This document shows positions 5,779-60,345 of a stretch of DNA of 64,000 nucleotides, piece after piece. Under the pieces are notes generated by a model. It did not search any database and had not been told where the DNA came from. It worked only from the letters and a program-made list of their open reading frames with translations. Location of the stretch: the IMG/VR virus record IMGVR_UViG_3300009085_000027, positions 1 to 64,000 of that record, one strand, 5' to 3'. This DNA comes from a virus. Each line of letters opens with the position of its first letter. Position 1 is the stretch's first letter. The translations under genes were made by a program, and so were the position numbers.

Positions 5779-6930
5779 CTATTCGAGGAACACCTTGGTG
5801 GAAAGCATCTGAGTCAGAAGCGCAATCTGGGACGGGGACAGCACGGCTGTTCCAATCGGGGGGCCTACCCCACCTGGGGGAAGGACAATCATGGGCTGGC
5901 TGAGCAAGGAAACCAGCGCAGGTCCCAGTACCGCGGATTGGGCCGCAGCCCGGCTCCCCAGCCTCACTGCGGCACCCCCGAGTGTGGCCGTGCCACTTGC
6001 TATGTGCTCGAGGCTGCCGCCGGCGGTGAGGCTTGTACTGCCGCCCACGGTGGTGCTGTGGTCCCCACCGACTTCCAGAGTGTCAGATCCCTGAACCTCC
6101 GTGGACCGGCTACCCGTGATGGTCTCGATGCGATCCCCATTGAGACCCACCTTGAGGGTGTAGACTGCCCCAGAGACCGACCCAGTGTCCCGGTCGATGC
6201 CCTGGGGTGCTACTGTGACCTCCCAAGCCGACTTGTCTGAGCCAGGCTCCGCAACGGGCAAGTACCTGACCTGGACTGTGGCCTTGGTGTCCTGGGCATA
6301 CTCCAGGAGATCCAAAGTCCACGTCGCCGGCGCCTTCCCCGAGGGGTCGGACTCAGACCGAGCCACGGTCCAGCTCAGATCCCCTCCAAAGGACTGCATC
6401 TCGTAGTTCTCGCAGAAGTCCTTGATGTAGTTGAGAACCGGGATGTAGAGGCGCTGGGACAGCGCAGTAGATCCAATCTGAACGATGCCACCCCGACGCA
6501 GGATGACGAAGTTCTCGTCCCGAGTCGTGAGTCCGACGTCTCCGGGATTCAACTCTGGACGCCTGGACCGGAACCCTACATCAGTGGGTGAGCCCTGGGG
6601 GTTGTCTGTGGTCTGGGACCGAGCGGCTTGATCATCCGGCGTGATCTCCACCGAGGGCAGACCCAGATACCCCATGACGAATGGCGGGGTGTTGTCACTG
6701 GGCCAACCCAACAAACAGATCGCCCCAACCTCGGGGAGATGATGAATCCCCTCGCCGTTGGCGTAGTGGTGGTACTGAGCCATGCACTGAATGTCAGTGA
6801 CGGTCTTGGCGCTGTGCCGGGTCTCTACCGTAACAGTCCAGGTCTTTCGATTGACGTCAGTGATCACGGCCTCCTCCAACCTGAAGAAGGAGTACCGGTT
6901 GTGTGAGGGTCCGCCTGGGGTCCTAGCCAT
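5779..6930 (-). CDS. baseplate central spike (gp5/gpV/VgrG-like)
   Basis: N-terminal OB-fold signature LPEVGAICLLGW; C-terminal beta-helix repeats TITGSRSTEVQGSDTLEVGGDHSTTVGGSTSLTAGG. Confidence 0.75.
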   Translation of the reverse strand: MARTPGGPSHNRYSFFRLEEAVITDVNRKTWTVTVETRHSAKTVTDIQCMAQYHHYANGEGIHHLPEVGAICLLGWPSDNTPPFVMGYLGLPSVEITPDDQAARSQTTDNPQGSPTDVGFRSRRPELNPGDVGLTTRDENFVILRRGGIVQIGSTALSQRLYIPVLNYIKDFCENYEMQSFGGDLSWTVARSESDPSGKAPATWTLDLLEYAQDTKATVQVRYLPVAEPGSDKSAWEVTVAPQGIDRDTGSVSGAVYTLKVGLNGDRIETITGSRSTEVQGSDTLEVGGDHSTTVGGSTSLTAGGSLEHIASGTATLGGAAVRLGSRAAAQSAVLGPALVSLLSQPMIVLPPGGVGPPIGTAVLSPSQIALLTQMLSTKVFLE

Positions 6931-9900
6931 GAGGCTTGTCCTGTGCCGTGCCGTAAGCTCTACCCGCTGCGACGCCGATAGCTAGTCCAGGGATCGGGTG
7001 TCGGCCACCAGGTGTCGACGTATGTCCATGCTGAATGGCGGTGAGCACACTCTGTGTGATTCGCTCACCCTGGAGACGCCCCATCCAGTCTGGCTGACTC
7101 CGCAAGGGGATCATACTGGCGGGGATCAAGTGGGACTCGTACTCAATAGGCTTCTTACCCTTCAGAACCGTCCTATTGATCTCATCCAAAACTGGCTTCG
7201 TCACGAAGTCACCCCGGACGTAACTATCATGGGCCCCGGGATCTTGCACCCGAACCACACTCGTCGCTGTGCGAACCGCGAGCTCGGCGTGCCGACGTAG
7301 AACACCCTCCCTGCCATAGATCCCACCAATACGATCCACCATGTGGGATTGCACGGCGTCAAGACCCTTCGTGCTCAACAGGTCGTGGATGTTGGGCTCT
7401 CCATGGGTGAGCACTTCACCCTTGGAGAAGGAATACCCAGGCTTGACGTGATCCAGAGTCCTCTGCCTCGACACCAAGGGGTTCTTCTTCTTGTCGATGT
7501 AGATGTTCCAGGTCCCCTGTCGGGTTTTCTCCACCGAGGAGACCACCCCAGTCGACGGAGCCACAGCTGCGTCCTCGCGACTGCGCTTCGAAGCAGCGAA
7601 GAGACGATGGACATCACTGAACTCGTCCATGCCTGTACCCTTGGTGCTGACGATACCGCCACCGTGGGTCTGCCGAAGCATTAGCTGGGCAGCGCGCTCA
7701 CCCAAAGCCTGTGCCGCGATGATTCCGACGTTCTCCCCCATGTGATAGTCGCCACCACTGGGATGCACCCCCATGCACTTGGAGCAGACCCCGTGCGGCA
7801 TGCGGCACTTCAGCGGTGACCTCACCAGGATGCGATCGACCTTTGCCTTCTCGGCGTGGGCCAAGAGGTCTGGTGTAACGACGGTCCCTGCCGGGACTTC
7901 ACGAGCCCCCAGCTTCAATGGCGCAGCCAGGTGGCGGTCCACGACGTCCTTGTTCTTGATCGGCATCAACATGCCTTGCGGCGTGCCGCAATCAGCCCCG
8001 GTGATGGGTTGATCAATATTGGCTTGCACCAAGAGCTTGGACATGTACCCGGGCTCGCGAACCGAGTCGGTCTTCTGGATTAGGGCACGACGAGCTCCGG
8101 CAGCCTGGAGGAAGTATCCGCCCAGGTCGATGCCCTCGGCAAAGGACTTCGTGATTGGCACCTTCGAGGGGCGACCCAGGTGGTCCTCAACAAGCATGGG
8201 GGCCATCACGAGGCCCTGGTACTGCTCACGCTTGGCTTTGATACCGCTCACCGCCATGTCGCTGACGTTGGTGGGGTGATTGGCGAAGTGGGTGGAGTAG
8301 GTGTCGTGCAGCTTCCTGGTCGCGTCGAGCCAGTGCTGGGTCACCTCATCGGTCTTCCCCTGGGCCATGAGGGGGTTCACCTTCTTCTGTGCAGCCGCAA
8401 CGATTTGGTCGCGCTTGTCCCTCAGTGGCTCGAGGTCCTTGAGTGTCACGGTGTGACCCGACTCGTACGCCATTTGGAACCCCAGACGGCTGAGATTGTC
8501 GGCGAGCTCCACGAAGTGCTTGGGCTGGGACTTCGCTGTATCGTGAAGGATCTCGGCCTGGAACTTCTTGTCGAATGGCGCCTTCAGGTCTGTCAGGATC
8601 CGGGTCCGGTACTTCTCCGGGACCACAGCAGCCACACGGGCTCGTCCCAGAGTGGTGTCCCCAACGCCCTGGATATGGATCGTCTCATTGAGCTGGACTC
8701 GGCTCTCTTTGAACGCCTTCTCCGCCTCATCCTTGGTCTTGAAGGCCTTGCCCTTGGCAGCCCCACGAGGGACGGACATGCGGTACAGCGCCAGGGCCGA
8801 TTCGTTGGAAGGGGCGTAGAGCACGTCACCGGAACTCTCCGAAATGATTCGCTGTGACGGAACGATCCTCCTGGTCTCCTCCACTGCAGCGTGGGTCAAA
8901 GGGACCATCAGGGCAACGGTGTCGCCATCGATGTCAGCATTCAGTGGCGGCAGCACCAGGGGGCTGAGCTTCACCGCGGGGTCGTCGGTGAGCTTCACGT
9001 TCTGCCCCACCAACCCGTACTGGTGGAGCACAGGATCTCGCTTCATCAGGAGTGGTCGATTCTTGATCTCCTGCTCCAAAGCCTTGATAGCGAGTGGCGC
9101 CTTCTGCGACACCATGATCTGTGCCTTGTCACCAGGCACACCCGAACGAATCAGACGGCTGACTATGAAAGGCCGGTAGAGCTCAGCAGCAATCTTCTTG
9201 GGCACCCCGACTTCATCCACACCAAGGTCGGGGTCCACCGTGATGGTGGCCCGAGACGTGTAGTCCTGCTTCTTCGCTATGATCTTGTCCTGGAAGAAGC
9301 CGTCCTTGGGCTGCTCTCCGCTGAGCATGTGGAGAATCCCGGGTAGCTTCTTGCTCCGGTCCTCGCGAGTACCACGCATGTCGAGGTCGAGCGCCTTCTT
9401 CCCCTTCGGAGTCGTACCAAACAGGTTCCGAAGCTCCTGATACAACCCGGCCTGAGCATCGAGCGTGGCGTTGAACGGGATCTTCTCCCCATGCTTTAGC
9501 GACTCATTGGTCACACCAAGTCGGCGGTACAGGGCGTTGAGTGGGTTGTTGTTGATGGTGCCGTCCGGCTTCGTCGTCTGTGGACGGAAGATCGGCGGTA
9601 TCACGGGGACATTCTGGATGGTCCAGGCGTCTGCTGGTTTGACCCCGAGCTCCTTTAGGGTGCGCAGCGCGTGGTACTTGAAGTGGGCCTTCTCCAGCGC
9701 AGCTTCCTTGATCTTCGGATCCTTGAGCGCATCCTTGGCGTCCTTCAGCTCCTTGTCGACATTGATCTTGGACAAAGCCTCGCGGAAACCTCTGCCGCCG
9801 TATTGGCCACCGGGGAGCTTCTTCTTCCCCTCGATGATGTCCGAGATGTCGGCTTCCTGGATGCCGAGGACTCGAGAGATGGCTCTGGCGTGGATGGGGT

Positions 9901-12900
9901 TGGGCATCGGCTCATGGAGACGGATATGACCCCAGTGGGTTCCACCTTCACTTCCGCCCGTGATGTGTGGGTCGAAGAGTCCGCCAGGCTCGGGGCGGTC
10001 GTCCTTGCCACGAAGTGTACGGGTCGGTCGCTTGATTTCCCCTCGGCTCAGGGCGAGGGTCTCGGCATCAGTCCGCGGAATGATCCGAACGGTGCCTCCC
10101 TCGTTCTTCACGGTCGTGCCCATCGCTGTGAGCATGGCCTCGAACTTCTTGTAGACGAACGGGATCTGGGGCTTGGGTAGAACGGCGGCGCCGTTGGTCA
10201 GAGCGGCCCAGACCGCATGGGCCTGGGACTGGTCCGACTTCAGGGTCTGCATTTCCTTGAGGTTGTCGTGAAGACCAGAGGCTAGAGCCGCATAGATCCC
10301 CAACGAGCCCAAGGACTGAGCTCCGTTGTGCCCACCACCACGAGGGATCTGGGTGTTGGCATCGTAGTGGAGCTTCGGCGTTCCCAGTGCTGGGAAACTC
10401 GGTCCGCCGCTGCGGACGTGGGTCTTCTTATCGATCTGGTGTTCGAGCTGGAACACGTAGTGGGGACCCACAGTGATGTCCCCGAGCTTCCTCCCCGTCT
10501 TGGGGTCGTAGAGAGCTTCTGTGTCCTTCAACCCATGGGACTTGAGCTCGCCCTGCAGCTTCTTCAGGTAGTCGACTCCGCCCTGGAAGTTCTTGACCAC
10601 GTAGGCCTTGCCGGTCTTTTCCGCGATTCGACCCGCGGCTGTCTCCAGGATCTGCCCCGGGTTGATACGACCCGGCACTGACACAGGATTGATCAAGATC
10701 TCAACGTGTTTGGACTCAGCATCATGTGGCATCTCCTTGTCGGGAAGGATGCTGGCCACAATGCCCTTGGCACTGTGCCGGGTCGAGAGCTTCGACCCCA
10801 CCTGGATTGGCTCCAGGGTCTTGACGTGGACCACGATTTGTCCACCCACGTTCTGGGCACGGACCACCTCACCGACATGGTCAGAGTCCCAGACCATGGA
10901 GGCGTTGTCATAGCGCTCACGTAGACGCTTGCCGATCTTTGCAGCGGCTCGAGGGCCCGTGGCGATCAGCCTGGTATCTTCGTTGAGAGCCAGGACGAGT
11001 GGATCCCCGGGATGAACCTTGGTGCCGACCCTAACGATTCCGTCGTCGCCAATCTTGTTGAGCTTGTCCAGGCCAAATACGGTGCCCTTGCTGCGGATAA
11101 AGCTCTTCTTGTCGACGGTGTGGTTGTCGGTGACAAGCATGGAGGGCTTGTGCAAGTGCTCGGAGCTCAGCTTCTTCGCCGCAGACTCGGAGATTACGAT
11201 GCCGTCTTCGTGGTTTGAGCCGTTAGCGATGTAGGCTACGCGGAGGTTAGTGCCGAGAGCGAGCTTGCCGCCCTTGGTGTAGTTGTTGTCTGCGACGATC
11301 TCTCCGGCCTTGACCTTGTCTCCGGGCTTCACCAAAGGTGTGGAGTGGAGTTCACCCTTGCTGTGGTTGGTCGGGTAGTGGTCGTAGAGGTCGACGGTGT
11401 GAGTCCCAGACTTCCCACGGATGACCACCTCGCCGGGCTTCACTGATACCACGACTCCGGCTTCCGGTGACTTTCGGGCCAAGAACCCGGAACCGACGAG
11501 GTCTTCAAAGGTGCGTCCGGCCCCGGCCTCGACCTGGACCTTGGGTGCTTCCCTTCCCGTGATGCTGATGGCCTGCGCCATGTGTCGGGCGCTCATCGTG
11601 CTGCGTCCGGCGCTGTCATTCTGCATGAACGGGACGAGATTGGTCTCCACGGTGAAGACCTGTGTCGCCGACGGCATCACGTAGTGGGCATCACCCCAGG
11701 GTAGGTCGTCACGGATCTGGCCGTGACCATCACTCATCCTGGTGGTCTTCCCCCGCGGCGTTGGCTTGCCGCCCTTCCACACCACCTGGTCTGGGAGGAT
11801 CACGGAGCTCACCGATGCCCTTGCGGCATCGACGTCCTCGAGCTTACCGGTGCGCAGGTTGTAGAGCCGGATGTGCGGCTTTCGATCCTTGACGGTGACT
11901 CCGAAAGCCTTGTGGGTGTTGACCCCGGTGTTGGACTCCGGGGTGTAAACGGGGTCCAAGAATCCGAGGTGGCTGGGGTCCAGGGCGGTGTTGGACTTCG
12001 ACAGTGCGTGCTGATTCTGGATGCCACCAGGCCCGGTGATGGTCACCAGGTTGTTGTCGCTGATCATTGTCAGCGGGTTGGTCTGCTTACCAACGGAGGT
12101 CAGCGACGTGGTGAAGACGTGATTCAGAGGGCGCTGAATCAAGTCAGGCATGAAGACGTCACGAAGGACCTGACGATCTCCAGAGGCTAGACGGCGTTGA
12201 ACCGTGGGCTTGCTCAAAGCCTGCTGGACTCGGCGGGTGATTTCCGGGGAGGCCTGAGCGATACGCTCCATGAAGTGGTCCTTGGCCGACCACAACTCCT
12301 TGTACCGAAGGCTGTCGATTGGGTCGGGATCTTTGCGACCCGCACTGACATCCAAGAGCTTCTTCGACGCCTCAAAGAGAAGGGCGGCATTGACCTGAGA
12401 GGTACGCACCCCGAGATTGGCATGAGCCACTTCGGGGTCCAGCTTCGTGGACTCAAAAATCGCGTGGGTCTCATTGCGAAGATCTGCGGTGCTCGCCGGA
12501 GCTTCCTTCCGCCACACCTCGTAAAGGGACCGAAGGTTCTTGTCCACACTGGCCTTGGACTTCGAGGCGTGGAAGGTGGACTCACCCCAGGCCTTCTTCA
12601 TGGCCTCATCCGTCACACCCATTGTGCTGAGTACGGAGTAGAGCGGGATCTTGCGGGACCCCACCTTCATGTGGATGTACCCGGACTCATCGAGCTGTAC
12701 GTCGAAGCTCCTGCCTTTGGCGAGCTGGAACTGGGCTTCGTACTCCCCTGGCTTCTCCGTGGCCTTGACGTAAGCACCTGGACGAAGACGCCACTGGTTC
12801 GCGATGGACTTCTCCTGCCCACCCATGATGTAGGAGTAGTGCCTGGTGAGCTTGGGGATCTTAGCGATCAGGGCATTGGGACGAGACACCACCGTCTTGT

Positions 12901-13141
12901 TCTCTTTGGTGTCAACGACCTCGATGGTCCCCAGGACTGGTACAGCCCAGGACTTACCCTCCAGCCGGGCCTTGGCCTGACCCTTGATGTCATCCGTGCC
13001 CAGGTGATCATCTACAGTAAGTCCGCTTACGCGAACCTCGAATCGACCAGACCGATCTTTGATCGGAAAGGTCCCACTGATCTGTGTGAGGAGTTGTTCC
13101 TTGAGCTCCTCGAACTGGGCTTTTGGGTCGGAGGTGAGCAC
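6923..13141 (-). CDS. rpoBC: DNA-directed RNA polymerase, fused beta+beta' single polypeptide
   Basis: beta motifs QTNPL..GPGG, NHEDGIVISE, GSKLSTRHSAKG, NPVSVPGRINPGQILE; beta' motifs GLFDP, VPVIPPIFRP, KKQDYTSRATI, catalytic NADIDGD (8921-8941), bridge helix GARRAL..GYMSKLL, Zn site RSPLKC..CSKC, trigger loop AAQALGERAAQLMLRQTHGGG. Confidence 0.97.
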   Translation of the reverse strand: MLTSDPKAQFEELKEQLLTQISGTFPIKDRSGRFEVRVSGLTVDDHLGTDDIKGQAKARLEGKSWAVPVLGTIEVVDTKENKTVVSRPNALIAKIPKLTRHYSYIMGGQEKSIANQWRLRPGAYVKATEKPGEYEAQFQLAKGRSFDVQLDESGYIHMKVGSRKIPLYSVLSTMGVTDEAMKKAWGESTFHASKSKASVDKNLRSLYEVWRKEAPASTADLRNETHAIFESTKLDPEVAHANLGVRTSQVNAALLFEASKKLLDVSAGRKDPDPIDSLRYKELWSAKDHFMERIAQASPEITRRVQQALSKPTVQRRLASGDRQVLRDVFMPDLIQRPLNHVFTTSLTSVGKQTNPLTMISDNNLVTITGPGGIQNQHALSKSNTALDPSHLGFLDPVYTPESNTGVNTHKAFGVTVKDRKPHIRLYNLRTGKLEDVDAARASVSSVILPDQVVWKGGKPTPRGKTTRMSDGHGQIRDDLPWGDAHYVMPSATQVFTVETNLVPFMQNDSAGRSTMSARHMAQAISITGREAPKVQVEAGAGRTFEDLVGSGFLARKSPEAGVVVSVKPGEVVIRGKSGTHTVDLYDHYPTNHSKGELHSTPLVKPGDKVKAGEIVADNNYTKGGKLALGTNLRVAYIANGSNHEDGIVISESAAKKLSSEHLHKPSMLVTDNHTVDKKSFIRSKGTVFGLDKLNKIGDDGIVRVGTKVHPGDPLVLALNEDTRLIATGPRAAAKIGKRLRERYDNASMVWDSDHVGEVVRAQNVGGQIVVHVKTLEPIQVGSKLSTRHSAKGIVASILPDKEMPHDAESKHVEILINPVSVPGRINPGQILETAAGRIAEKTGKAYVVKNFQGGVDYLKKLQGELKSHGLKDTEALYDPKTGRKLGDITVGPHYVFQLEHQIDKKTHVRSGGPSFPALGTPKLHYDANTQIPRGGGHNGAQSLGSLGIYAALASGLHDNLKEMQTLKSDQSQAHAVWAALTNGAAVLPKPQIPFVYKKFEAMLTAMGTTVKNEGGTVRIIPRTDAETLALSRGEIKRPTRTLRGKDDRPEPGGLFDPHITGGSEGGTHWGHIRLHEPMPNPIHARAISRVLGIQEADISDIIEGKKKLPGGQYGGRGFREALSKINVDKELKDAKDALKDPKIKEAALEKAHFKYHALRTLKELGVKPADAWTIQNVPVIPPIFRPQTTKPDGTINNNPLNALYRRLGVTNESLKHGEKIPFNATLDAQAGLYQELRNLFGTTPKGKKALDLDMRGTREDRSKKLPGILHMLSGEQPKDGFFQDKIIAKKQDYTSRATITVDPDLGVDEVGVPKKIAAELYRPFIVSRLIRSGVPGDKAQIMVSQKAPLAIKALEQEIKNRPLLMKRDPVLHQYGLVGQNVKLTDDPAVKLSPLVLPPLNADIDGDTVALMVPLTHAAVEETRRIVPSQRIISESSGDVLYAPSNESALALYRMSVPRGAAKGKAFKTKDEAEKAFKESRVQLNETIHIQGVGDTTLGRARVAAVVPEKYRTRILTDLKAPFDKKFQAEILHDTAKSQPKHFVELADNLSRLGFQMAYESGHTVTLKDLEPLRDKRDQIVAAAQKKVNPLMAQGKTDEVTQHWLDATRKLHDTYSTHFANHPTNVSDMAVSGIKAKREQYQGLVMAPMLVEDHLGRPSKVPITKSFAEGIDLGGYFLQAAGARRALIQKTDSVREPGYMSKLLVQANIDQPITGADCGTPQGMLMPIKNKDVVDRHLAAPLKLGAREVPAGTVVTPDLLAHAEKAKVDRILVRSPLKCRMPHGVCSKCMGVHPSGGDYHMGENVGIIAAQALGERAAQLMLRQTHGGGIVSTKGTGMDEFSDVHRLFAASKRSREDAAVAPSTGVVSSVEKTRQGTWNIYIDKKKNPLVSRQRTLDHVKPGYSFSKGEVLTHGEPNIHDLLSTKGLDAVQSHMVDRIGGIYGREGVLRRHAELAVRTATSVVRVQDPGAHDSYVRGDFVTKPVLDEINRTVLKGKKPIEYESHLIPASMIPLRSQPDWMGRLQGERITQSVLTAIQHGHTSTPGGRHPIPGLAIGVAAGRAYGTAQDKPHG

Positions 13142-33111: not shown

Positions 33112-35118
33112 ATGCCGCGACTCCGACTGCTTCCGCCGGTAACGGCGGTGACTCAGCCGGAAGAGGCCACCCCGGTCATCGAGTACTTGATGAACCGGGG
33201 TGGTCAGATCGCAATCGATACAGAGACCACGGGACTTCACCGCACGAAGTCCCGTGTTCTCTTTTGGTCCATGGCCACAGAGGACAAACGTTTCTTCCTC
33301 TCGGTCGATCGACTCAATCAGTTCGATTGCCTCTTCCAGCGAAAAGACATCAGATGGCTCCTGACGAACGCCAAGTTCGACAAGCACATGTTGAAGAACA
33401 TGGGCTACGACCTCAGAGGTGAGGCCTGGGACATCATCGACATGGATGCCATGGACGATGACACACGCCCCCACGGGTTGAAGGAGCAGTCCAAGTACGC
33501 CTACGGCGCCAACTGGGGTGAGTTCAAGGATCTGTTCCTGGATCCCTACATGGTCTCTGAGGTCATGGGGATGGACGCTCTCATGCTGTCCGGATTCAAG
33601 AAGCTGGGGATCGGGGACAAGCTCCTGGAGGTCTACGACCAGTGCCCGGAGATTGTGGAGGAGTACGCCAGCTGCGACGCCTTCTTCACGTACATGCGCG
33701 CTGCGGACCTGATGAAGCAGCTCGACTCACTGTACTTGCCCACGGAGTACTTCCCCGAGCTACGCACCCTCCTCGACTACTACCGCATCATTGAGATGCC
33801 GCTGACCCAGACGCTGTGGAAGATGGAGCGTGTGGGGATCAATGTTGATGTCGACTACGTCAAGAAGATCGATGGCCCCATGCGAGACGGTATCCGGGCT
33901 GCTGAGAGCCGGGTACACGACGCAGCTGGCAAGAAGTTCAACGTCCGGTCCACCGATGAACTCAGGGGAATCTTGTTCGGTGAGAAGTCTGGATTCGGGT
34001 TCAGGCCTGTGTCCTACACCACGGGCAAGGGCAAGCCCGTTGCGAGTACGGATGAGAGCACACTGAGCATCTTGATGATGCGGACCCCAAAGGACTCTCC
34101 AGCGGGTAAGTTCCTCAAGGCGCTCGTCGATCACCGACATCTTGCCCAGCTGCACAGCACATACATCAAGAAGCTGCTCGGTCGTCTGGACGAGCACGAC
34201 ACCAGTCTGAGATGCAAGTTCAACCAGTCGGTGGCCCGCACCGGCCGGTTGAGTTCATCAGACCCCAACATGCAAAACATCCCAGCCCGTAATGACCCCT
34301 ACAAGATCCGTGGGGCTTTTACGGCGCGCAACGGCAAGGAACTCATCGACTACGACTACCCCCAGATTGAGTTCCGCATCGCTGCGGTCTTGTCCGGGGA
34401 AGAAGGCATGATGGAGTCCATCCGTAAGGGATGGGACGTACACAACGCCAACACCGTTAGGATGTACAAGTCCGACTCTGACGTCACCTACGAAGCCGTA
34501 GTTGAATCCCGAAGGAAGAAGGACGCCAAAGAGTCACTGACTGAGATAGATCGCAAGCTACTGCGGTTCCGAGACGGCGCCAAGACATCTGGTCTGGGAT
34601 GTCTCTACGGTGAAGGTTCCGGAAAGATGGCTCACGACCTGGGCTGTAGCAAAGACGAGGCCCAGGAGCTGATCAACACCTTCTTCACCGCGAATAAGAT
34701 GATCCATGCGTCGATTCAATCGATGCACAGCTTCGCCCACGAGACAGAGATGACCTACACCATGCTAGGTCGTATCCGTCGCCTCCACCGCATCAACTCC
34801 AGCCTTGGAGGTTTGGTCGCGGAGGAACGTAGACAGTCCTACAACACCCTGATCCAAGGCAGCGGCGCAGAGATGCTGAAACTGGCCATGCTTCAGATCG
34901 ATAATGACCCCGACTTCCAAGCCCTTGGTGGTCGACTTCTACTCACAGTGCATGACGAGCTCGTCGCTGAAGCCCCAAAGGACACAGCAGCAGAAGTCAG
35001 TCGCATCATGAAAGCCAAGATGAGCGATCCCTACAACTGGGGGCCAATCGTAATGACGTACCCCGTACCCGTAGATCCCGAAGGGGCGCGGGGCCACCGA
35101 TGGAGCGATCTCAAGTGA
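33112..35118 (+). CDS. polA: DNA polymerase family A with 3'-5' exonuclease
   Basis: DTETTG, NAKFD, YASCD; TGRLSSSDPNMQNIP, DYPQIEFR, RDGAKTSGLGCLYG, VHDEL. Confidence 0.95.
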   Translation: MPRLRLLPPVTAVTQPEEATPVIEYLMNRGGQIAIDTETTGLHRTKSRVLFWSMATEDKRFFLSVDRLNQFDCLFQRKDIRWLLTNAKFDKHMLKNMGYDLRGEAWDIIDMDAMDDDTRPHGLKEQSKYAYGANWGEFKDLFLDPYMVSEVMGMDALMLSGFKKLGIGDKLLEVYDQCPEIVEEYASCDAFFTYMRAADLMKQLDSLYLPTEYFPELRTLLDYYRIIEMPLTQTLWKMERVGINVDVDYVKKIDGPMRDGIRAAESRVHDAAGKKFNVRSTDELRGILFGEKSGFGFRPVSYTTGKGKPVASTDESTLSILMMRTPKDSPAGKFLKALVDHRHLAQLHSTYIKKLLGRLDEHDTSLRCKFNQSVARTGRLSSSDPNMQNIPARNDPYKIRGAFTARNGKELIDYDYPQIEFRIAAVLSGEEGMMESIRKGWDVHNANTVRMYKSDSDVTYEAVVESRRKKDAKESLTEIDRKLLRFRDGAKTSGLGCLYGEGSGKMAHDLGCSKDEAQELINTFFTANKMIHASIQSMHSFAHETEMTYTMLGRIRRLHRINSSLGGLVAEERRQSYNTLIQGSGAEMLKLAMLQIDNDPDFQALGGRLLLTVHDELVAEAPKDTAAEVSRIMKAKMSDPYNWGPIVMTYPVPVDPEGARGHRWSDLK

Positions 35119-36392
35119 AGAAGAAAACCAAGGCTGTGAAGTCGAAACCGGCGAAGACGAAAGCCGTGAAGACCGTGGAATCCAAACCCACGACTAGAGA
35201 ACCCTCGGGTGGGGAGGACAGGGCTGGTGTACTCGGTAACCTGATCCGAGGGATCAATGCCAAGTACAAGGCCACTGTCATCTCCCTAGCCAAGGACACC
35301 AGCTCCTCGTACATCCTGCGTAGACCAACGGGGATCACGAGTCTGGACATCAAGCTAGGGGGTGGATTCCCGGCCAGCGCGGTGAGCGTCATTGTTGGAC
35401 CCGACGGGGCTGGCAAGGACTACATCGTGTGGAGAACTGCGGCCGAGGTCCAAAAGATCTATGGTGAGTCCTTTCGCATGGCGATCTTGCTGACAGAGTT
35501 CAAGCTCGACAAGCCCTTCATGCGAGACATCTGTGGCTTGAAAGTGGCACTGACACCGTCCGAGATCGAAGAGCTCGATGAGTCCAGGACGAGGCTCGGT
35601 GTTGACATCCTTACGGATGAGGAGCGCGAGAGTCTCACCACGGAGATTGGCGAGATCGGGATCATTGAGGGTCAGACCGCGGAGGACGGGTTCGACATCC
35701 TCATCGACATCGTGGAGAAGAATGTCTGCCAACTCGTGGTGGTCAACTCCATCGGGTTCATGCAGACCGCAGCGAAGGAAGCCACGGATAGCTTCAACGA
35801 GTTCCCGCAGCAACGGAACGAGGCAATGCTTCTCACCAAGGTCATGCCGAAGCTCAGCATGATCCTGAACCGATCCAGTCATGTCGGGGAGAGGAACGAG
35901 ACAGCCATCATCCTCATCAACCAGATGAGGGCTAAGACAGGCGGTGCCCCAGTACGTGGCCGCCCAGTGATGGAACGCGACACCTATCAACCCGGTTCAG
36001 GCGCCTGGGCCCTGAAGCATGGCAAAGCCCTCGAGCTCTGCATCCACAAGGGGAAGAAGCACACCGATGTGGAGACCAACGTCGTAATGGGCCGAGAAGT
36101 TCCATGGCAGATAACGAAGGGAAAGCTGGGTACTCATGACGGTCTCAGCGGCAGCTTCGACTTCTTCTACGACGGGGGTGTCGACATCATCGGGGACCTC
36201 TACAACACCGCGGTGTCTGCAGGGCTGTTCGTAGTGGGTGGTGCCTGGATCACATATGAGCACCCCGAGTTTGGGTTCAAGGCTCAGGGAAAGGCCGGGG
36301 CCAGGCGCCGGATGATAGAGAGCCCTGAGCTCTGCGCCCACATCCGTGACGCCTGTTTCCGGGCGGCGCAGACCGTGTACCGGCACAAGTGA
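35115..36392 (+). CDS. recA: RecA-like recombinase with atypical Walker motifs
   Basis: PTGITSLDIKLGGGFP, GPDGAGKD, VVNSIG, ILINQMR, ALKH; GTGA overlap with polA. Confidence 0.85.
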   Translation: MKKKTKAVKSKPAKTKAVKTVESKPTTREPSGGEDRAGVLGNLIRGINAKYKATVISLAKDTSSSYILRRPTGITSLDIKLGGGFPASAVSVIVGPDGAGKDYIVWRTAAEVQKIYGESFRMAILLTEFKLDKPFMRDICGLKVALTPSEIEELDESRTRLGVDILTDEERESLTTEIGEIGIIEGQTAEDGFDILIDIVEKNVCQLVVVNSIGFMQTAAKEATDSFNEFPQQRNEAMLLTKVMPKLSMILNRSSHVGERNETAIILINQMRAKTGGAPVRGRPVMERDTYQPGSGAWALKHGKALELCIHKGKKHTDVETNVVMGREVPWQITKGKLGTHDGLSGSFDFFYDGGVDIIGDLYNTAVSAGLFVVGGAWITYEHPEFGFKAQGKAGARRRMIESPELCAHIRDACFRAAQTVYRHK

Positions 36393-38914: not shown

Positions 38915-39083
38915 CCCGAACTACGCGGTGTGCTACGCCCGAGGCGCTGTGTTCAAAACCGAAGGCCACTTCTTTAGGGTGGAAAAGGGTCGCCGTAATC
39001 TGGTAAAGCGCGAGCTCTGCGCATCCCAGTACTACGGGGCGCGGTGCAGGATCTGTCCCAATCGCGTAGAGGCCCCGTGTTGA
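38865..39083 (+). CDS. small Cys-rich hypothetical protein
   Basis: ATG 38865 with GGAG SD; 72 aa, C..C..CRIC. Confidence 0.5.
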   Translation: MGRATELVSLNKDKSDNPNYAVCYARGAVFKTEGHFFRVEKGRRNLVKRELCASQYYGARCRICPNRVEAPC

Positions 39084-39403
39084 ACCTTGACGATCTCAAC
39101 ACCACAGAGCTAGTTGCTCTAGCCCGGGAGAACGACCCTGATGCACATCGCGGTCTGGGCCGTGACGTGCTGTTCACCCTAATCACAGACACCTACGAAG
39201 ACACACTACCTGAACGAAAAGTTGACAAACTCAGACTGAAGATCATGGGCTACATCCTGGACCACTGGTCCCAGGTGAACCCTCTTCTGTCCTGCCCGGC
39301 AAAAACCAAGAACCCAAGAGCGTGCTTCCGCTGCACTGACGTGCAGGTCGTGGAGTGCGCGTTCGTAAACCCCGCTGCATTCGACAAGACCCAAGGAGAC
39401 TGA
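39077..39403 (+). CDS. hypothetical protein with HeH/Rho-N-like N-terminus and 4-Cys C-terminus
   Basis: LDDLNTTELVALARE; CPAK..ACFRC..EC; GTG with GAGG SD. Confidence 0.6.
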   Translation: MLNLDDLNTTELVALARENDPDAHRGLGRDVLFTLITDTYEDTLPERKVDKLRLKIMGYILDHWSQVNPLLSCPAKTKNPRACFRCTDVQVVECAFVNPAAFDKTQGD

Positions 39404-39404
39404 A

Positions 39405-39881
39405 ATGACACTTCCCGCAGGAATCAAGGCTCGTACCCGTGAAGAGTGGACTTCGATCGCGAACAAAGAGGAGCCCATCGAGCGCAAGCCCATCATCGAC
39501 GCCTTGAAGGCGCTGGGCATCGACCCGATGGACTACCTCGCCATGGACAATGACGAGCGCGTCGAGCGCGTCATGGCGGCTCAGAGCGAGGGTGAGGAGG
39601 AGGCACCGAAGAAGTCCAAGGCCAAGGCCTCGGCTTCATCAGCCTCGGACGAGCCAGTGACCAATGGTAAGTCCTCGGCTGGCAAGGACCTCGCTGGTCT
39701 CCAGGCCACGGTGAACCACCTCCGCGCCGAGGTCGAGGAGCTCAGCGCGCTGGTTCGCGACGCCCACTTCCTGATCCGAGTCCTGGTTCAATCCGACGCC
39801 CGCCTGAAGGGCAACGCCCGGGACGAGGACCTCCAGGGAGCGATGTACGGCAAGCTCGCGGTGGCCCGGGGAAACGGCTAG
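39405..39881 (+). CDS. hypothetical protein, short form of a probable frameshifted gene
   Basis: SD AAGGAG; strong codon bias; ends ..ARGNG*. Confidence 0.75.
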   Translation: MTLPAGIKARTREEWTSIANKEEPIERKPIIDALKALGIDPMDYLAMDNDERVERVMAAQSEGEEEAPKKSKAKASASSASDEPVTNGKSSAGKDLAGLQATVNHLRAEVEELSALVRDAHFLIRVLVQSDARLKGNARDEDLQGAMYGKLAVARGNG

Positions 39882-39906
39882 CCCGGACTGACCAGCTTGG
39901 GGTCCG
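39869..39906 (+). other. putative programmed -1 ribosomal frameshift site
   Basis: In-frame G GGA AAC heptamer, then hairpin CGGACT...GGTCCG 8 nt downstream; -1 frame open to TAG 40084. Confidence 0.7.
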
Positions 39907-40084
39907 TCCACTTCCTGAAGATCATGTGTTCGACATCGACATCGATAAGCTCCACAAGATGTCGATGTCAGAACTCTTCGATCTCATGGGGCAACTGGGC
40001 CTCAGCACAGCGGGTCTAGAGGACCGGGCATCGGCATTGGACAAGCTCATGTCCGATGCCACCACAGTTGATATAGTGGAGTAG
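39875..40084 (+). CDS. -1 frame extension (HeH/Rho-N-like domain)
   Basis: RLARTDQ...IDKLHKMSMSELFDLMGQLGLSTAGLEDRASALDKL...*; ends just before a terminator. Confidence 0.6.
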   Translation, partial: RLARTDQLGVRPLPEDHVFDIDIDKLHKMSMSELFDLMGQLGLSTAGLEDRASALDKLMSDATTVDIVE

Positions 40085-40115
40085 GAGGGGGCGGGTGATC
40101 CGCCCCCTCTCTTTT
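40085..40115 (+). terminator. intrinsic terminator of replication operon
   Basis: GAGGGGGCGG-gtgat-CCGCCCCCTC-TCTTTT. Confidence 0.8.
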
Positions 40116-40125
40116 GGAGGTCACC

Positions 40126-40644
40126 ATGCGCTACCTGCTTTTTGCCTTCACCGCACCCTGGAGTCTCACCATTGGGTGGGGCTGGGTTCTCCTACTCCGA
40201 CTCTTCGCCGCCAGAGATCTGCGGTGGGAGCCCACTGGAGTGCTCACCGCAGAGTGGAGACCCTGGGCAGCCCGGCTCTGGAGGTTCTCCACCACCCTGG
40301 GCCGCGGAATCATCTACCAACCCCAACACCGCGCTCGCCGAGGATCCCCGTGGACCAGAATCCAACACCACGAGCACCTCCATGTCAGGCAGACCGAAGA
40401 CCTCATGCTCCTTGGCTTGATCCTGGGAGCTGCCGTCGCCTCACTGACCCAGGACTGGACTCTTGGCATGGTGCTGTGGTGGAGCAGCGGGATGTGGCAA
40501 GTCCCCAACTTCCTCACCGCCTGGCTTCGTGGGGGTCACCCCTACAGGGACGCCGAGCATGAGATCGCGGCCTATGCCGCCACGGACGAGGACGATGAGG
40601 GCTGGAGTTGGTTGAAGCGACACCGGGCCAGGTCGAACCCCTAA
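40126..40644 (+). CDS. membrane protein with HExxH zincin-like motif
   Basis: GGAGG SD; TM segments; HEHLH and PYRDAEHEIAAY. Confidence 0.6.
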   Translation: MRYLLFAFTAPWSLTIGWGWVLLLRLFAARDLRWEPTGVLTAEWRPWAARLWRFSTTLGRGIIYQPQHRARRGSPWTRIQHHEHLHVRQTEDLMLLGLILGAAVASLTQDWTLGMVLWWSSGMWQVPNFLTAWLRGGHPYRDAEHEIAAYAATDEDDEGWSWLKRHRARSNP

Positions 40645-58225: not shown

Positions 58226-58882
58226 TCAGTGGGACAAAGCAGCGGCTGGGGCGAACCTATCAATGGCTCGCTCCATCAGCTTCTTCCCTGCCAGTGATGC
58301 TGGGCTAATCCCTGGCACGGGGACTGGTTGAAGCGGGATCTGTTCGGGGTTTCGGATCAAGGCCTTTCCACCGGTACGTACGGCCTTCTTCAGTGGGGCC
58401 GGTATACCAGCGGTGGCCTTGTGTAGTTTGCGCTCCAGCGGGGCTTCTACCCTCCGCATCCCACGAGTCACTGACTTCTGCAGCCTGGCCAGCTCCTCTG
58501 GGCTTCGGTGTTTCATCAGAAGTCTTGGTGTGGACTTGATCACCTTACCGACACCAGGGAGGTCCTCGACATCCGTAGCAGCTAGTCGGGTCAGGCGCTC
58601 AATCAGTGCAAGTTTGTCGGCACTGTACTTGTCATTCGGCAGCTGGGGGTCGTAGTTCGTAGTCATCCGACTCATCGGGGGTCGGGCGTAGGAAGACCGC
58701 GGTGGTCTGTCCTGCGCGTTCTGTTGCCGAGGCCTAGTGCTGTCGGTGTCGTACACCGTTTTATTCAGACCAGCACGGCGATCTCTGGACAAAGGGTCCT
58801 TGCTGTTGAGTTCGGCGTTGTTGCTCTCCACCGCTTCCATCACGTTCTTGGCGAAGGACCGAAAGATGGGCTGTTCAATCAT
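58226..58882 (-). CDS. basic hypothetical protein
   Basis: 218 aa; ATGA-coupled to the helicase gene; DKLAL motif. Confidence 0.6.
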   Translation of the reverse strand: MIEQPIFRSFAKNVMEAVESNNAELNSKDPLSRDRRAGLNKTVYDTDSTRPRQQNAQDRPPRSSYARPPMSRMTTNYDPQLPNDKYSADKLALIERLTRLAATDVEDLPGVGKVIKSTPRLLMKHRSPEELARLQKSVTRGMRRVEAPLERKLHKATAGIPAPLKKAVRTGGKALIRNPEQIPLQPVPVPGISPASLAGKKLMERAIDRFAPAAALSH

Positions 58883-60345
58883 GGGGCCTCAGCTGCGAGC
58901 AGTTCTCGGACCTGTTGGTTCAACTGGTCCTTGTTTGCAGACATCGTACGCAGGTACTCGTCGACACCACCAGGTCGCTTGGCCCCAAAGAACTTCTTGA
59001 TACCCCTGGGATTGGGGAGGGTGCTGACGTAGTGCTCGACATCCACGGTACGTTGGTCCTCGGGGAGCTTGGCATGGGACTGATACCGAATACCGCGGCC
59101 GATCACCTGCTCGAGCTTTTCCTTATTCCAGTGTGGATCCAGGACTTGAATCTGTCTGGTTCCTTTGAGATCCAGGCCCTCGCCACCGGCACTGCTCAGG
59201 AGAAGGGCTCGGAGTTTCCCAGCGTTGTAAGCGTCCACGGTCTCCTGGCGCTGACGCTTTGCCATGGCCCCAGTGAACTTTCCGTACGGGATGTTCTTGG
59301 CCTTCAGCATCGACTCATACGGCGAGATCCCTGACTCCAAGAAGTTGGAGTAGACCAAGGCCTTGTGCTCCGGGTTCTTCTCGATGGCCTTGCTCAACCT
59401 GGTAAATGCCTCTTGCATCTTGGGGCTGAGCTTCGCGGCTCCTTCGGGATCGATGCCTTCGACGAATCCACCCGGTGACACCGCCACCTGGCGGGCCGCA
59501 CCGAGGAAGGCATTGAGCTGCTTGGACTCCGCCTTGGACGGCGGCAATCCGCGCTTGACCTTGCGACGCACCCAGGCCGGGGCCTGACCCATCAAGGACT
59601 CGTAGACCTCCCGCTGCTTATCCCCCATGGTGGTCTCCACCACAGTGTCCTTGCGGGTTGGGAAATCCGGACCAGCGACGTTCTCGTGGTAGTCCACCCA
59701 CTTCTTCAGCGCCTTGCCCAGCTCCGCCTTGTTCTTGAGCTCGGGAATACTACCCGGCTTGATGCCACGGAAGACACGATCAATAAGACCGGGGTTCACC
59801 TGTCGAGACCCTATGTAGCGGTTCTCGAACTCAGCCCTGTCCTGCGGGAACACCGAATCACCAGCCGCGACATTGACGAGGCTGGCCAGGTCATAAGGTC
59901 GGTTGTAAAGCGGGGTTCCGGTGAGAAGTAGGCGTTTCTTCGCCGTCGACTTGCGAGCTGCGTGCTGAGCCTTGGTTCCTGGGTCCCGCAGCCTATGGGC
60001 CTCATCGATCACCAAGAGATCTCCCCCAGGTAGTTCTCCGGAACGCGAGGCACGTTGAAGACTCTCCACCTTGTACTTGGCGTGGTCCTCACCGAGATGC
60101 TTTGCCATCTCCTTTCGGTAGTTGGCCTGCAAGGCCGCAGGAACCACCACCGTAGCCGGACCACCCAGCTCCTCTGCAGCAGCCAGGCTGCTCAGGGTCT
60201 TCCCGGACCCAACGCCATGGGCCACGACCAATCCGGGCTGAGACTTGATCCGCTGAACCACCCTCTTCTGGTGGGGTTTCAGCTCTGTGATTACTTCAGC
60301 CGTCTTCTCTGCGATTAGGCGAAGCGCGATTCGTACTGGGTCCAT
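58879..60345 (-). CDS. SNF2-family helicase/ATPase
   Basis: HGVGSGKT, VVVPAAL, DEAH, LTGTP, GGEGLDL, DPHWN..EQVIGRGIR. Confidence 0.9.
   Translation of the reverse strand: MDPVRIALRLIAEKTAEVITELKPHQKRVVQRIKSQPGLVVAHGVGSGKTLSSLAAAEELGGPATVVVPAALQANYRKEMAKHLGEDHAKYKVESLQRASRSGELPGGDLLVIDEAHRLRDPGTKAQHAARKSTAKKRLLLTGTPLYNRPYDLASLVNVAAGDSVFPQDRAEFENRYIGSRQVNPGLIDRVFRGIKPGSIPELKNKAELGKALKKWVDYHENVAGPDFPTRKDTVVETTMGDKQREVYESLMGQAPAWVRRKVKRGLPPSKAESKQLNAFLGAARQVAVSPGGFVEGIDPEGAAKLSPKMQEAFTRLSKAIEKNPEHKALVYSNFLESGISPYESMLKAKNIPYGKFTGAMAKRQRQETVDAYNAGKLRALLLSSAGGEGLDLKGTRQIQVLDPHWNKEKLEQVIGRGIRYQSHAKLPEDQRTVDVEHYVSTLPNPRGIKKFFGAKRPGGVDEYLRTMSANKDQLNQQVRELLAAEAP

Follow-up and report, generated by a model that had tools for sequence, protein, structure and literature searches.

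A conserved slippery heptamer supports programmed -1 frameshifting in a phage gene outside the tail module

A programmed -1 ribosomal frameshift most probably takes place at the heptamer G_GGA_AAC, or its variant G_GGA_AAA, at the end of a phage gene that lies outside the tail module; the shift would add a HeH-like domain to the encoded protein. The gene was analysed in a stretch of 64,000 nucleotides (hereafter the window), part of a 73.9-kb IMG/VR virus record of ~59% GC. Very probably it constitutes a new, well-supported case of programmed frameshifting outside tail genes, and a full-text literature search found no paper describing it. An earlier note on this DNA had made the same central claim from the letters alone. 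The comparison of seven independent phage lineages, all of which keep the arrangement, supports that claim; the hairpin and Shine-Dalgarno arguments first offered for it fail, and the comparative evidence takes their place.

The zero-frame gene occupies 39405..39881 (+) and encodes a 158-aa protein of an uncharacterised phage family. It starts at ATG 39405, preceded by the Shine-Dalgarno sequence AAGGAG (39393..39398, +; duplex -8.5 kcal/mol), and its 3' end reads CGG GGA AAC GGC TAG, encoding A-R-G-N-G. The heptamer G_GGA_AAC is found there at 39869..39875 (+), in frame in the X_XXY_YYZ phase and one codon 5' of the stop TAG (39879..39881, +), exactly as it had been described. In its phase with ATG 39405 it permits re-pairing of both tRNAs in the -1 frame. 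The latter is open from 39671 to TAG 40082-40084 and comprises 69 codons from 39875 onwards (P0001), ending just before a terminator. The length of this frame and its position are those reported before; likewise, the predicted products of 158 aa and 157+69 = 226 aa agree with the sizes proposed at the time.

By itself, the sequence of the window is not convincing for frameshifting. Its crude gene set contains 41 in-frame XXXYYYZ heptamers in 20,160 codons, 8 of them with 60 or more stop-free codons in the -1 frame, so that a stop-proximal heptamer followed by a small ORF is expected occasionally in a large scan. The site stands above chance because the heptamer is conserved in relatives. Elsewhere in the window, C_CCA_AAG occurs in frame at 34974-34980 (+), 45 codons 5' of the stop of gene 33112..35118. 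The -1 frame there meets no stop over 470 codons and runs straight across the overlapping RecA-like gene (35100..36392); that gene has its own ATG, and the heptamer may be a product of chance.

The foremost alternative to frameshifting is a pair of separate genes. A HeH-like peptide of 41-52 aa would start at GTG 39926 or ATG 39959, perhaps because ribosomes that have terminated at TAG 39881 re-initiate there, and the G-N at the end of the main protein would be a motif maintained at the protein level. We consider this improbable. Its first support is that the gene caller predicted a 52-aa ORF (P0004) within the extension; searched with the word index, the extension itself matched solely this ORF.

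The frameshift reading draws first on the protein family. Neither the main protein nor the extension of the window matched Pfam or PHROGs. A word-index search returned a single homologue (P0003; 52% identical, 157 aa, ending A-R-G-G-N-A), and an exhaustive HMMER search with the resulting two-sequence profile gave 82 representative clusters. In 66/82 clusters the C-terminus is G-N or G-K plus 0-3 residues: GNG in 21, GND in 11, GNE in 9, GNDD in 6, GNA in 5, GKG in 1, GKE in 1, and others. The remaining 16/82 clusters lack such an ending at the protein level. The rest of the C-terminal region is much less conserved than the dipeptide, and in nearly every case N is followed by G, D, E or A, each with a codon beginning with G. 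As G-N and G-K endings are encoded by GGA-AAC and GGA-AAR, they form a family-wide signature of the heptamer.

Relatives with their nucleotide sequences came from contig scans. A metagenome scan yielded L002, L003 and L004, the last matching L003 at the locus. A scan with the Cys-motif protein encoded just upstream, which is better conserved, added four further IMG/VR phages, L005 (the same as L006), L007 (nearly the same as L008), L009 (the same as L010) and L011, whose contigs reach 150-178 kb; the same seven loci came up again when viral contigs were scanned with query A6. No relatives were detected in GenBank phages by blastn and tblastn, among 185,579 GTDB genomes, in viral contig scans with queries A1, A3 and the RecA-like protein, or in a metagenome contig scan with P0003 as query. 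Near-identical strains of the window are present in freshwater-sediment, sediment and freshwater metagenomes of several studies. We thus compared seven independent lineages: the window, L002, L003, L005, L007, L009 and L011. The six further lineages are 30-50% identical, the main protein being 35-48% identical in L002-L004.

In every one of the seven, the heptamer is in frame and 0-2 codons 5' of the stop. It is G_GGA_AAC in five lineages (window, L002, L003, L007, L009) and G_GGA_AAA in the other two (L005, L011). The extension invariably lies in the -1 frame, over 65-82 codons, despite indels and a variable linker, a constancy that speaks against two separate genes. In the window, 14.8% of Gly codons are GGA, and G is the last base in 32% of all codons; with this codon usage the joint chance of G_GGA is ~0.048 per lineage, a probability that is not strictly independent from one lineage to the next because the seven share ancestry. 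A G-N motif selected at the protein level would not predict the rare GGA with its preceding G seven times in 7/7 lineages. Moreover, the replacements of G-N by G-K are those that keep the heptamer, which such a motif does not explain either. Conservation in homologues was the check that the earlier note had named for its proposal, and it turns out favourably both in nucleotides, across all lineages, and in the G-N/K endings of the wider family.

The -1-frame extension (39875..40084, +; 69 codons and TAG) consists of a linker with a GVxPL motif in codons 1-22, followed by a predicted HeH-like domain. The seven extensions are alignable along their entire length, with the core pattern ..L-R-x-M-x-x-x-[ED]-L-x-x-L-x-x-x-L-G-[ILV]-x-x-x-G-[LIVM]-E-D-R-x-S-A... 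Between the heptamer and this core, -1 is the only frame free of stops in all seven lineages and also the best conserved one, with a cross-lineage mean local BLOSUM score of 31.8 vs 20.2 and 23.3 in the other frames: a second argument against two genes. The GVxPL motif is common to the window, L003, L007 and L009; in the window and L003 it precedes the candidate starts, and the first GTG of L007 and L009 is its own Val codon. Many residues shared by the lineages differ in synonymous positions of their codons (8/13 identical residues between the window and L007, for example), and the 3 SNPs found within the extension among near-identical strains are all third-position synonymous in the -1 frame.

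Codon composition was also evaluated along the extension. In the -1 frame, the log-likelihood of 39926-40081 is +0.52 per codon, comparable to that of true genes. The first 17 codons (39875-39925) look non-coding in the same frame, with GC1 0.94, GC3 0.41 and a log-likelihood of -0.49 per codon, as two separate genes would have it. Their GC1 and GC3 are the reverse of the genome's coding pattern; such an odd composition may reflect an RNA-level constraint beside the shift site. Altogether, the comparison of the lineages supports the view that extension and linker are both translated in the -1 frame from the shift site on. Readthrough of TAG 39881 was considered as well, 39882-39925 having a frame-0-like GC3 in what is a small sample of 17 codons, and was rejected: there are frame-0 stops in the linker of every lineage, and it is the -1 frame that is conserved.

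The absence of a Shine-Dalgarno-led start in the -1 frame had been put forward as evidence for the shift. In the window, GTG 39926 and ATG 39959 are present in this frame and neither has a Shine-Dalgarno sequence, so the observation stands, but the argument is weak. About a quarter of the window's ORF starts, as taken from crude longest-ORF calls, have no detectable Shine-Dalgarno, so a missing one before the extension proves little; that many genes of this phage start without a clear one even favours two genes. The same holds for the Met at the start of the HeH core, present in 6/7 lineages: it has no Shine-Dalgarno in the window, L005, L007 and L009 and a moderate one in L002 and L011, because of which some independent initiation from it is possible. 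Start codons in the relatives point the other way. The first ATG/GTG/TTG of the -1 frame in L003 is at codon 45/74, inside the core, with no canonical start before the domain or at its beginning, and in L002 and L005 the first such codon is the conserved core Met. An independent start at GTG 39926 or ATG 39959, raised by the earlier note as the outcome that would overturn its proposal, is made unlikely by the start-less L003, by L002 and L005 and by the linker conserved in the -1 frame, possible as it is for the window taken singly.

Transcriptional slippage on GGGAAA, by the host or phage RNA polymerase, would make the same -1 fusion at the protein level, and this phage encodes its own multisubunit-type RNA polymerase. 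For transcriptional slippage to be productive, however, homopolymers must as a rule comprise at least 6-9 A or T, and the runs here are only G3 and A3-A4. The conserved X_XXY_YYZ codon phase, in turn, matters for tRNA re-pairing and not for a polymerase; we regard this explanation as very improbable. The change of frame could also be an indel introduced by assembly or sequencing, or the trace of a single gene broken recently, the true gene being one uninterrupted ORF; we regard this as practically negligible. It has the general frequency of indel errors near homopolymers for it and nothing else that we found. Against it, all 7 lineages, assembled independently of each other, have the same arrangement with a zero-frame stop, contigs of near-identical strains in four other freshwater/sediment runs are free of indels over the covered parts, heptamer included, and no in-frame fusion of the main protein and the extension was found among the 86-277 aa proteins searched or among longer ones, for which the search was weak.

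For ribosomal frameshifting, the preferred explanation, a downstream hairpin had been named as a stimulatory element. An imperfect hairpin is indeed present at 39885..39909 (+), 9 nt 3' of the heptamer (-12.2 kcal/mol), but it is no better than dinucleotide shuffles (z = 0.1) and is not conserved. Relatives have no common downstream structure, and none exceeds shuffled sequences in any lineage; local hairpins of -8 to -16 kcal/mol occur downstream, with z from -0.65 to +0.75 across lineages for the proximal 45 nt. A stimulator role of the hairpin is therefore unsupported. By eye, no Shine-Dalgarno-like stimulator is found in the 30 nt upstream of each heptamer. The only elements conserved around the site are the zero-frame stop close by and, for many members, the string GGGAAAC-GGC-TRR.

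Some proven frameshift cases are without a known stimulator (PMC4066793). G_GGA_AAC shifts with low efficiency in E. coli but ranks among the commonest heptamers of IS1/IS3 elements with -1 frameshifting (Sharma et al. 2014, PMC4066793), and a haloarchaeal virus has it as its g-t shift site (Atkins et al. 2016 review, PMC5009743). Since this heptamer is inefficient in E. coli yet used by IS1/IS3, we infer that the frameshift rate would be low, as for lambda gpGT.

We propose the following course of translation. Most ribosomes would translate 39405..39881 and terminate at TAG, making the 158-aa protein the major product. In a minority, the P- and A-site tRNAs on GGA-AAC would re-pair to GGG-AAA in a -1 slip; these ribosomes would resume at CGG 39875 and read 69 codons to TAG 40084, giving the 226-aa protein as the minor isoform. 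The long isoform would gain a flexible linker and a small HeH/SAP/Rho-N-like domain. The gene likely yields, then, a set ratio of one-HeH and two-HeH isoforms of a nucleic-acid-associated protein.

Genes 5' of the frameshift gene, at 35.1-38.9 kb, encode RecA-like (RecA/UvsX-like), resolvase, Cas4-like exonuclease and RusA proteins; between this group and the frameshift gene come a small unnamed protein and the Cys-motif protein. An intrinsic-terminator-like stem with a T-run (40087..40116, +) is located directly 3' of the extension stop; the terminator is thus placed after the extension and not after the zero-frame stop. In L002 and L003, GC-rich inverted repeats followed by T-runs are visible by eye 3' of the extension. 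That the gene ends a replication operon, as had been claimed, fits both these upstream genes and the terminator downstream.

With its replication-type neighbours and no match to a chaperone family, the gene also lies outside the tail module, as previously stated. In the window, neither part of the protein matches tail assembly chaperone families in Pfam or PHROGs; the L005 extension has a partial, sub-threshold match to Phage_TAC_6 (20.1 bits vs a cut-off of 23.4), the only one of its kind. A tail assembly chaperone identity was ruled out by the location of the gene and the lack of homology.

Past the terminator, small genes follow that vary among relatives. In the window, a predicted membrane protein is encoded at 40126-40644 (+), with the N-terminus M-R-Y-L-L-F-A-F-T-A-P-W. 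It is found at the equivalent position in L002 (3108-3641) and L007 (5057-5710); L009 has a receiver-domain-like gene there and L003 another gene. Further away, 6923-13141 (-) is a single ORF of 2072 aa with Rpb2 domain 6 followed by Rpb1 domains 1, 2, 3 and 5, which by its domain order is a phage-encoded fused beta-beta' RNA polymerase of the multisubunit type in one polypeptide. Most large ORFs of 42309-63671 (-) (787, 860, 1233 and 1324 aa) have no Pfam or PHROG match, the exceptions being a sub-threshold PKD match in the 1233-aa ORF and a helicase at 58879-60345; judged from these searches, any structural module in that region is highly divergent.

The gene directly upstream of the frameshift gene (39077..39403, +; start at GTG 39044, GTG 39077 or TTG 39080) encodes a small protein with a HeH-looking N-terminus and the Cys motif CPA...ACFxCTDxQxxEC, whose invariant form across the lineages is C-P-A ... 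A-C-F-x-C-T-D-x-Q-x-x-[EA]-C. It has no Pfam or PHROG family match. This gene is directly 5' of the family gene in 7/7 lineages (at 2089-2421 in L002, 4677-4988 in L003, 3989-4324 in L005 and 3989-4318 in L007, among others), and in P0020, P0038 and P0041 it is fused in frame to the family protein. Eight other longer matches, which align with the family only from about residue 115-140, may be further fusions of this kind. The synteny and the in-frame fusions argue that the partner and the frameshift protein act together, and both isoforms would work with it. A predicted complex of the 158-aa protein and the Cys-motif protein scored 0.08, without a verdict.

The AF2 model of the 158-aa protein (pLDDT 84, alignment of 47 sequences) has a confident N-terminal helical domain of the Rho-N/LEM-like type at residues ~10-64. 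It is followed by a disordered K/A/S/E-rich (basic/acidic) linker (~62-95), the length of which varies greatly across the family, then by a long helix of 35 residues (96-130) and two short helices. The long helix, common to both isoforms, could mediate oligomerisation. The N-terminal domain is structurally closest to that of Rho (1a62; Z 5.7, with an rmsd of 1.8 across 46 residues), followed by YqbF (Z 5.0) and by the LEM domain of emerin (Z 4.3). A Foldseek search of the whole 158-aa model against PDB and BFVD gave no match at E < 0.1, and in the ESM Atlas it found unnamed viral clusters only, with scores < 0.8.

The extension was modelled from the 7 sequences. Its AF2 model contains a three-helix HeH/SAP-like core at 39941..40069 (+), extension residues ~23-65, made of helices 23-28, 31-41 and 51-65 with an extended loop at 42-50; block pLDDT is 78-83 over residues 21-60. 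In this model the topology is that of a helix-extended loop-helix domain, at ~35-45 residues. The Foldseek list is mostly of the SAP/HeH type (the C-terminal domains of CDNF and MANF, Tho1 SAP, the Rho N-terminal domain and YqbF), all at E > 1, as expected for a domain of 40 residues, and a PDB profile search returned Rho 3l0o at E 0.65. Against Pfam, the window's extension matches neither SAP nor Rho_N; one of the seven orthologues, L007, does so below threshold (SAP 18.1 bits, cut-off 23.9; Rho_N 15.7 bits, cut-off 24.9). The likeness to Rho-N/HeH motifs suspected from the letters thus fits the model and the fold lists, but every score is below the family threshold. Structurally, the models can reasonably be read as placing a candidate HeH-like domain at either end of the long isoform, and the extension would accordingly adopt a HeH/SAP/Rho-N-like fold with putative nucleic-acid binding.

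On such a view, the two isoforms could be those of a "DNA-bridging or nucleoid protein", as was suggested at the outset. A bolder version, which we hold to be doubtful but worth stating, is that unrecognised recoding across a clade of uncultivated phages of ~150-180 kb tunes the one-/two-HeH ratio of an abundant coiled-coil protein, which would join a Zn-binding HeH partner in organising or bridging phage DNA. If true, the frameshift would set the balance of a phage chromatin or nucleoid component, not of an assembly chaperone.

In tailed phages, most described conserved programmed frameshifts are in tail chaperone or capsid genes, and annotation pipelines seldom check for them elsewhere. The PRFect prediction tool, for one, was trained on a set made almost wholly of tail chaperone frameshifts (PMC10885494). 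The present recoding signal would be conserved across an 82-cluster family of non-structural proteins. Recognising it corrects the annotation of the whole family, for which gene callers give an orphan 52-aa ORF in the window, and suggests that the large phages of an unstudied clade have a two-isoform HeH protein among their conserved components. With a heptamer that is inefficient in E. coli and no recognisable stimulator, it is also a clean natural system for testing stop-proximal frameshifting that is independent of a stimulator, in a high-GC host.

Three known systems can be set beside this gene. The HeH/SAP/LEM/Rho domains (Rho 1a62, B. subtilis YqbF 2hjq, emerin LEM 2odc, Tho1 SAP 4uzw) agree with it in predicted topology and size; they rank first among the matches of the N-terminal domain as well as of the extension, and the pattern L-x-x-M-x-x-x-E-L-x-x-L-x-x-x-L-G-[IL] fits HeH-type domains by eye, while all scores here are sub-threshold (Foldseek E > 1, VIA Z 4.3-5.7). 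With the IS1/IS3 transposase frameshifts it has the heptamer G_GGA_AAC in common; unlike them, it shows no transposase homology, and a short C-terminal domain is added instead of two large ORFs being fused.

The third is the tail assembly chaperone frameshift of lambda G/GT, on G_GGA_AAG, with its counterparts in other tailed phages. Unlike G/GT, the gene described here lies outside the tail module and not between a major tail/tube gene and a tape-measure gene, and the added domain has a HeH/SAP-looking fold instead of being a T domain. For lambda, the proportion in which the two products are made is important (PMC5009743). The two systems are nonetheless alike in their design: a -1 shift on G_GGA_AAN, only a few codons from the stop, in the gene of a small helical protein, from which a minor long isoform would keep the N-terminal part and gain a small extra domain.
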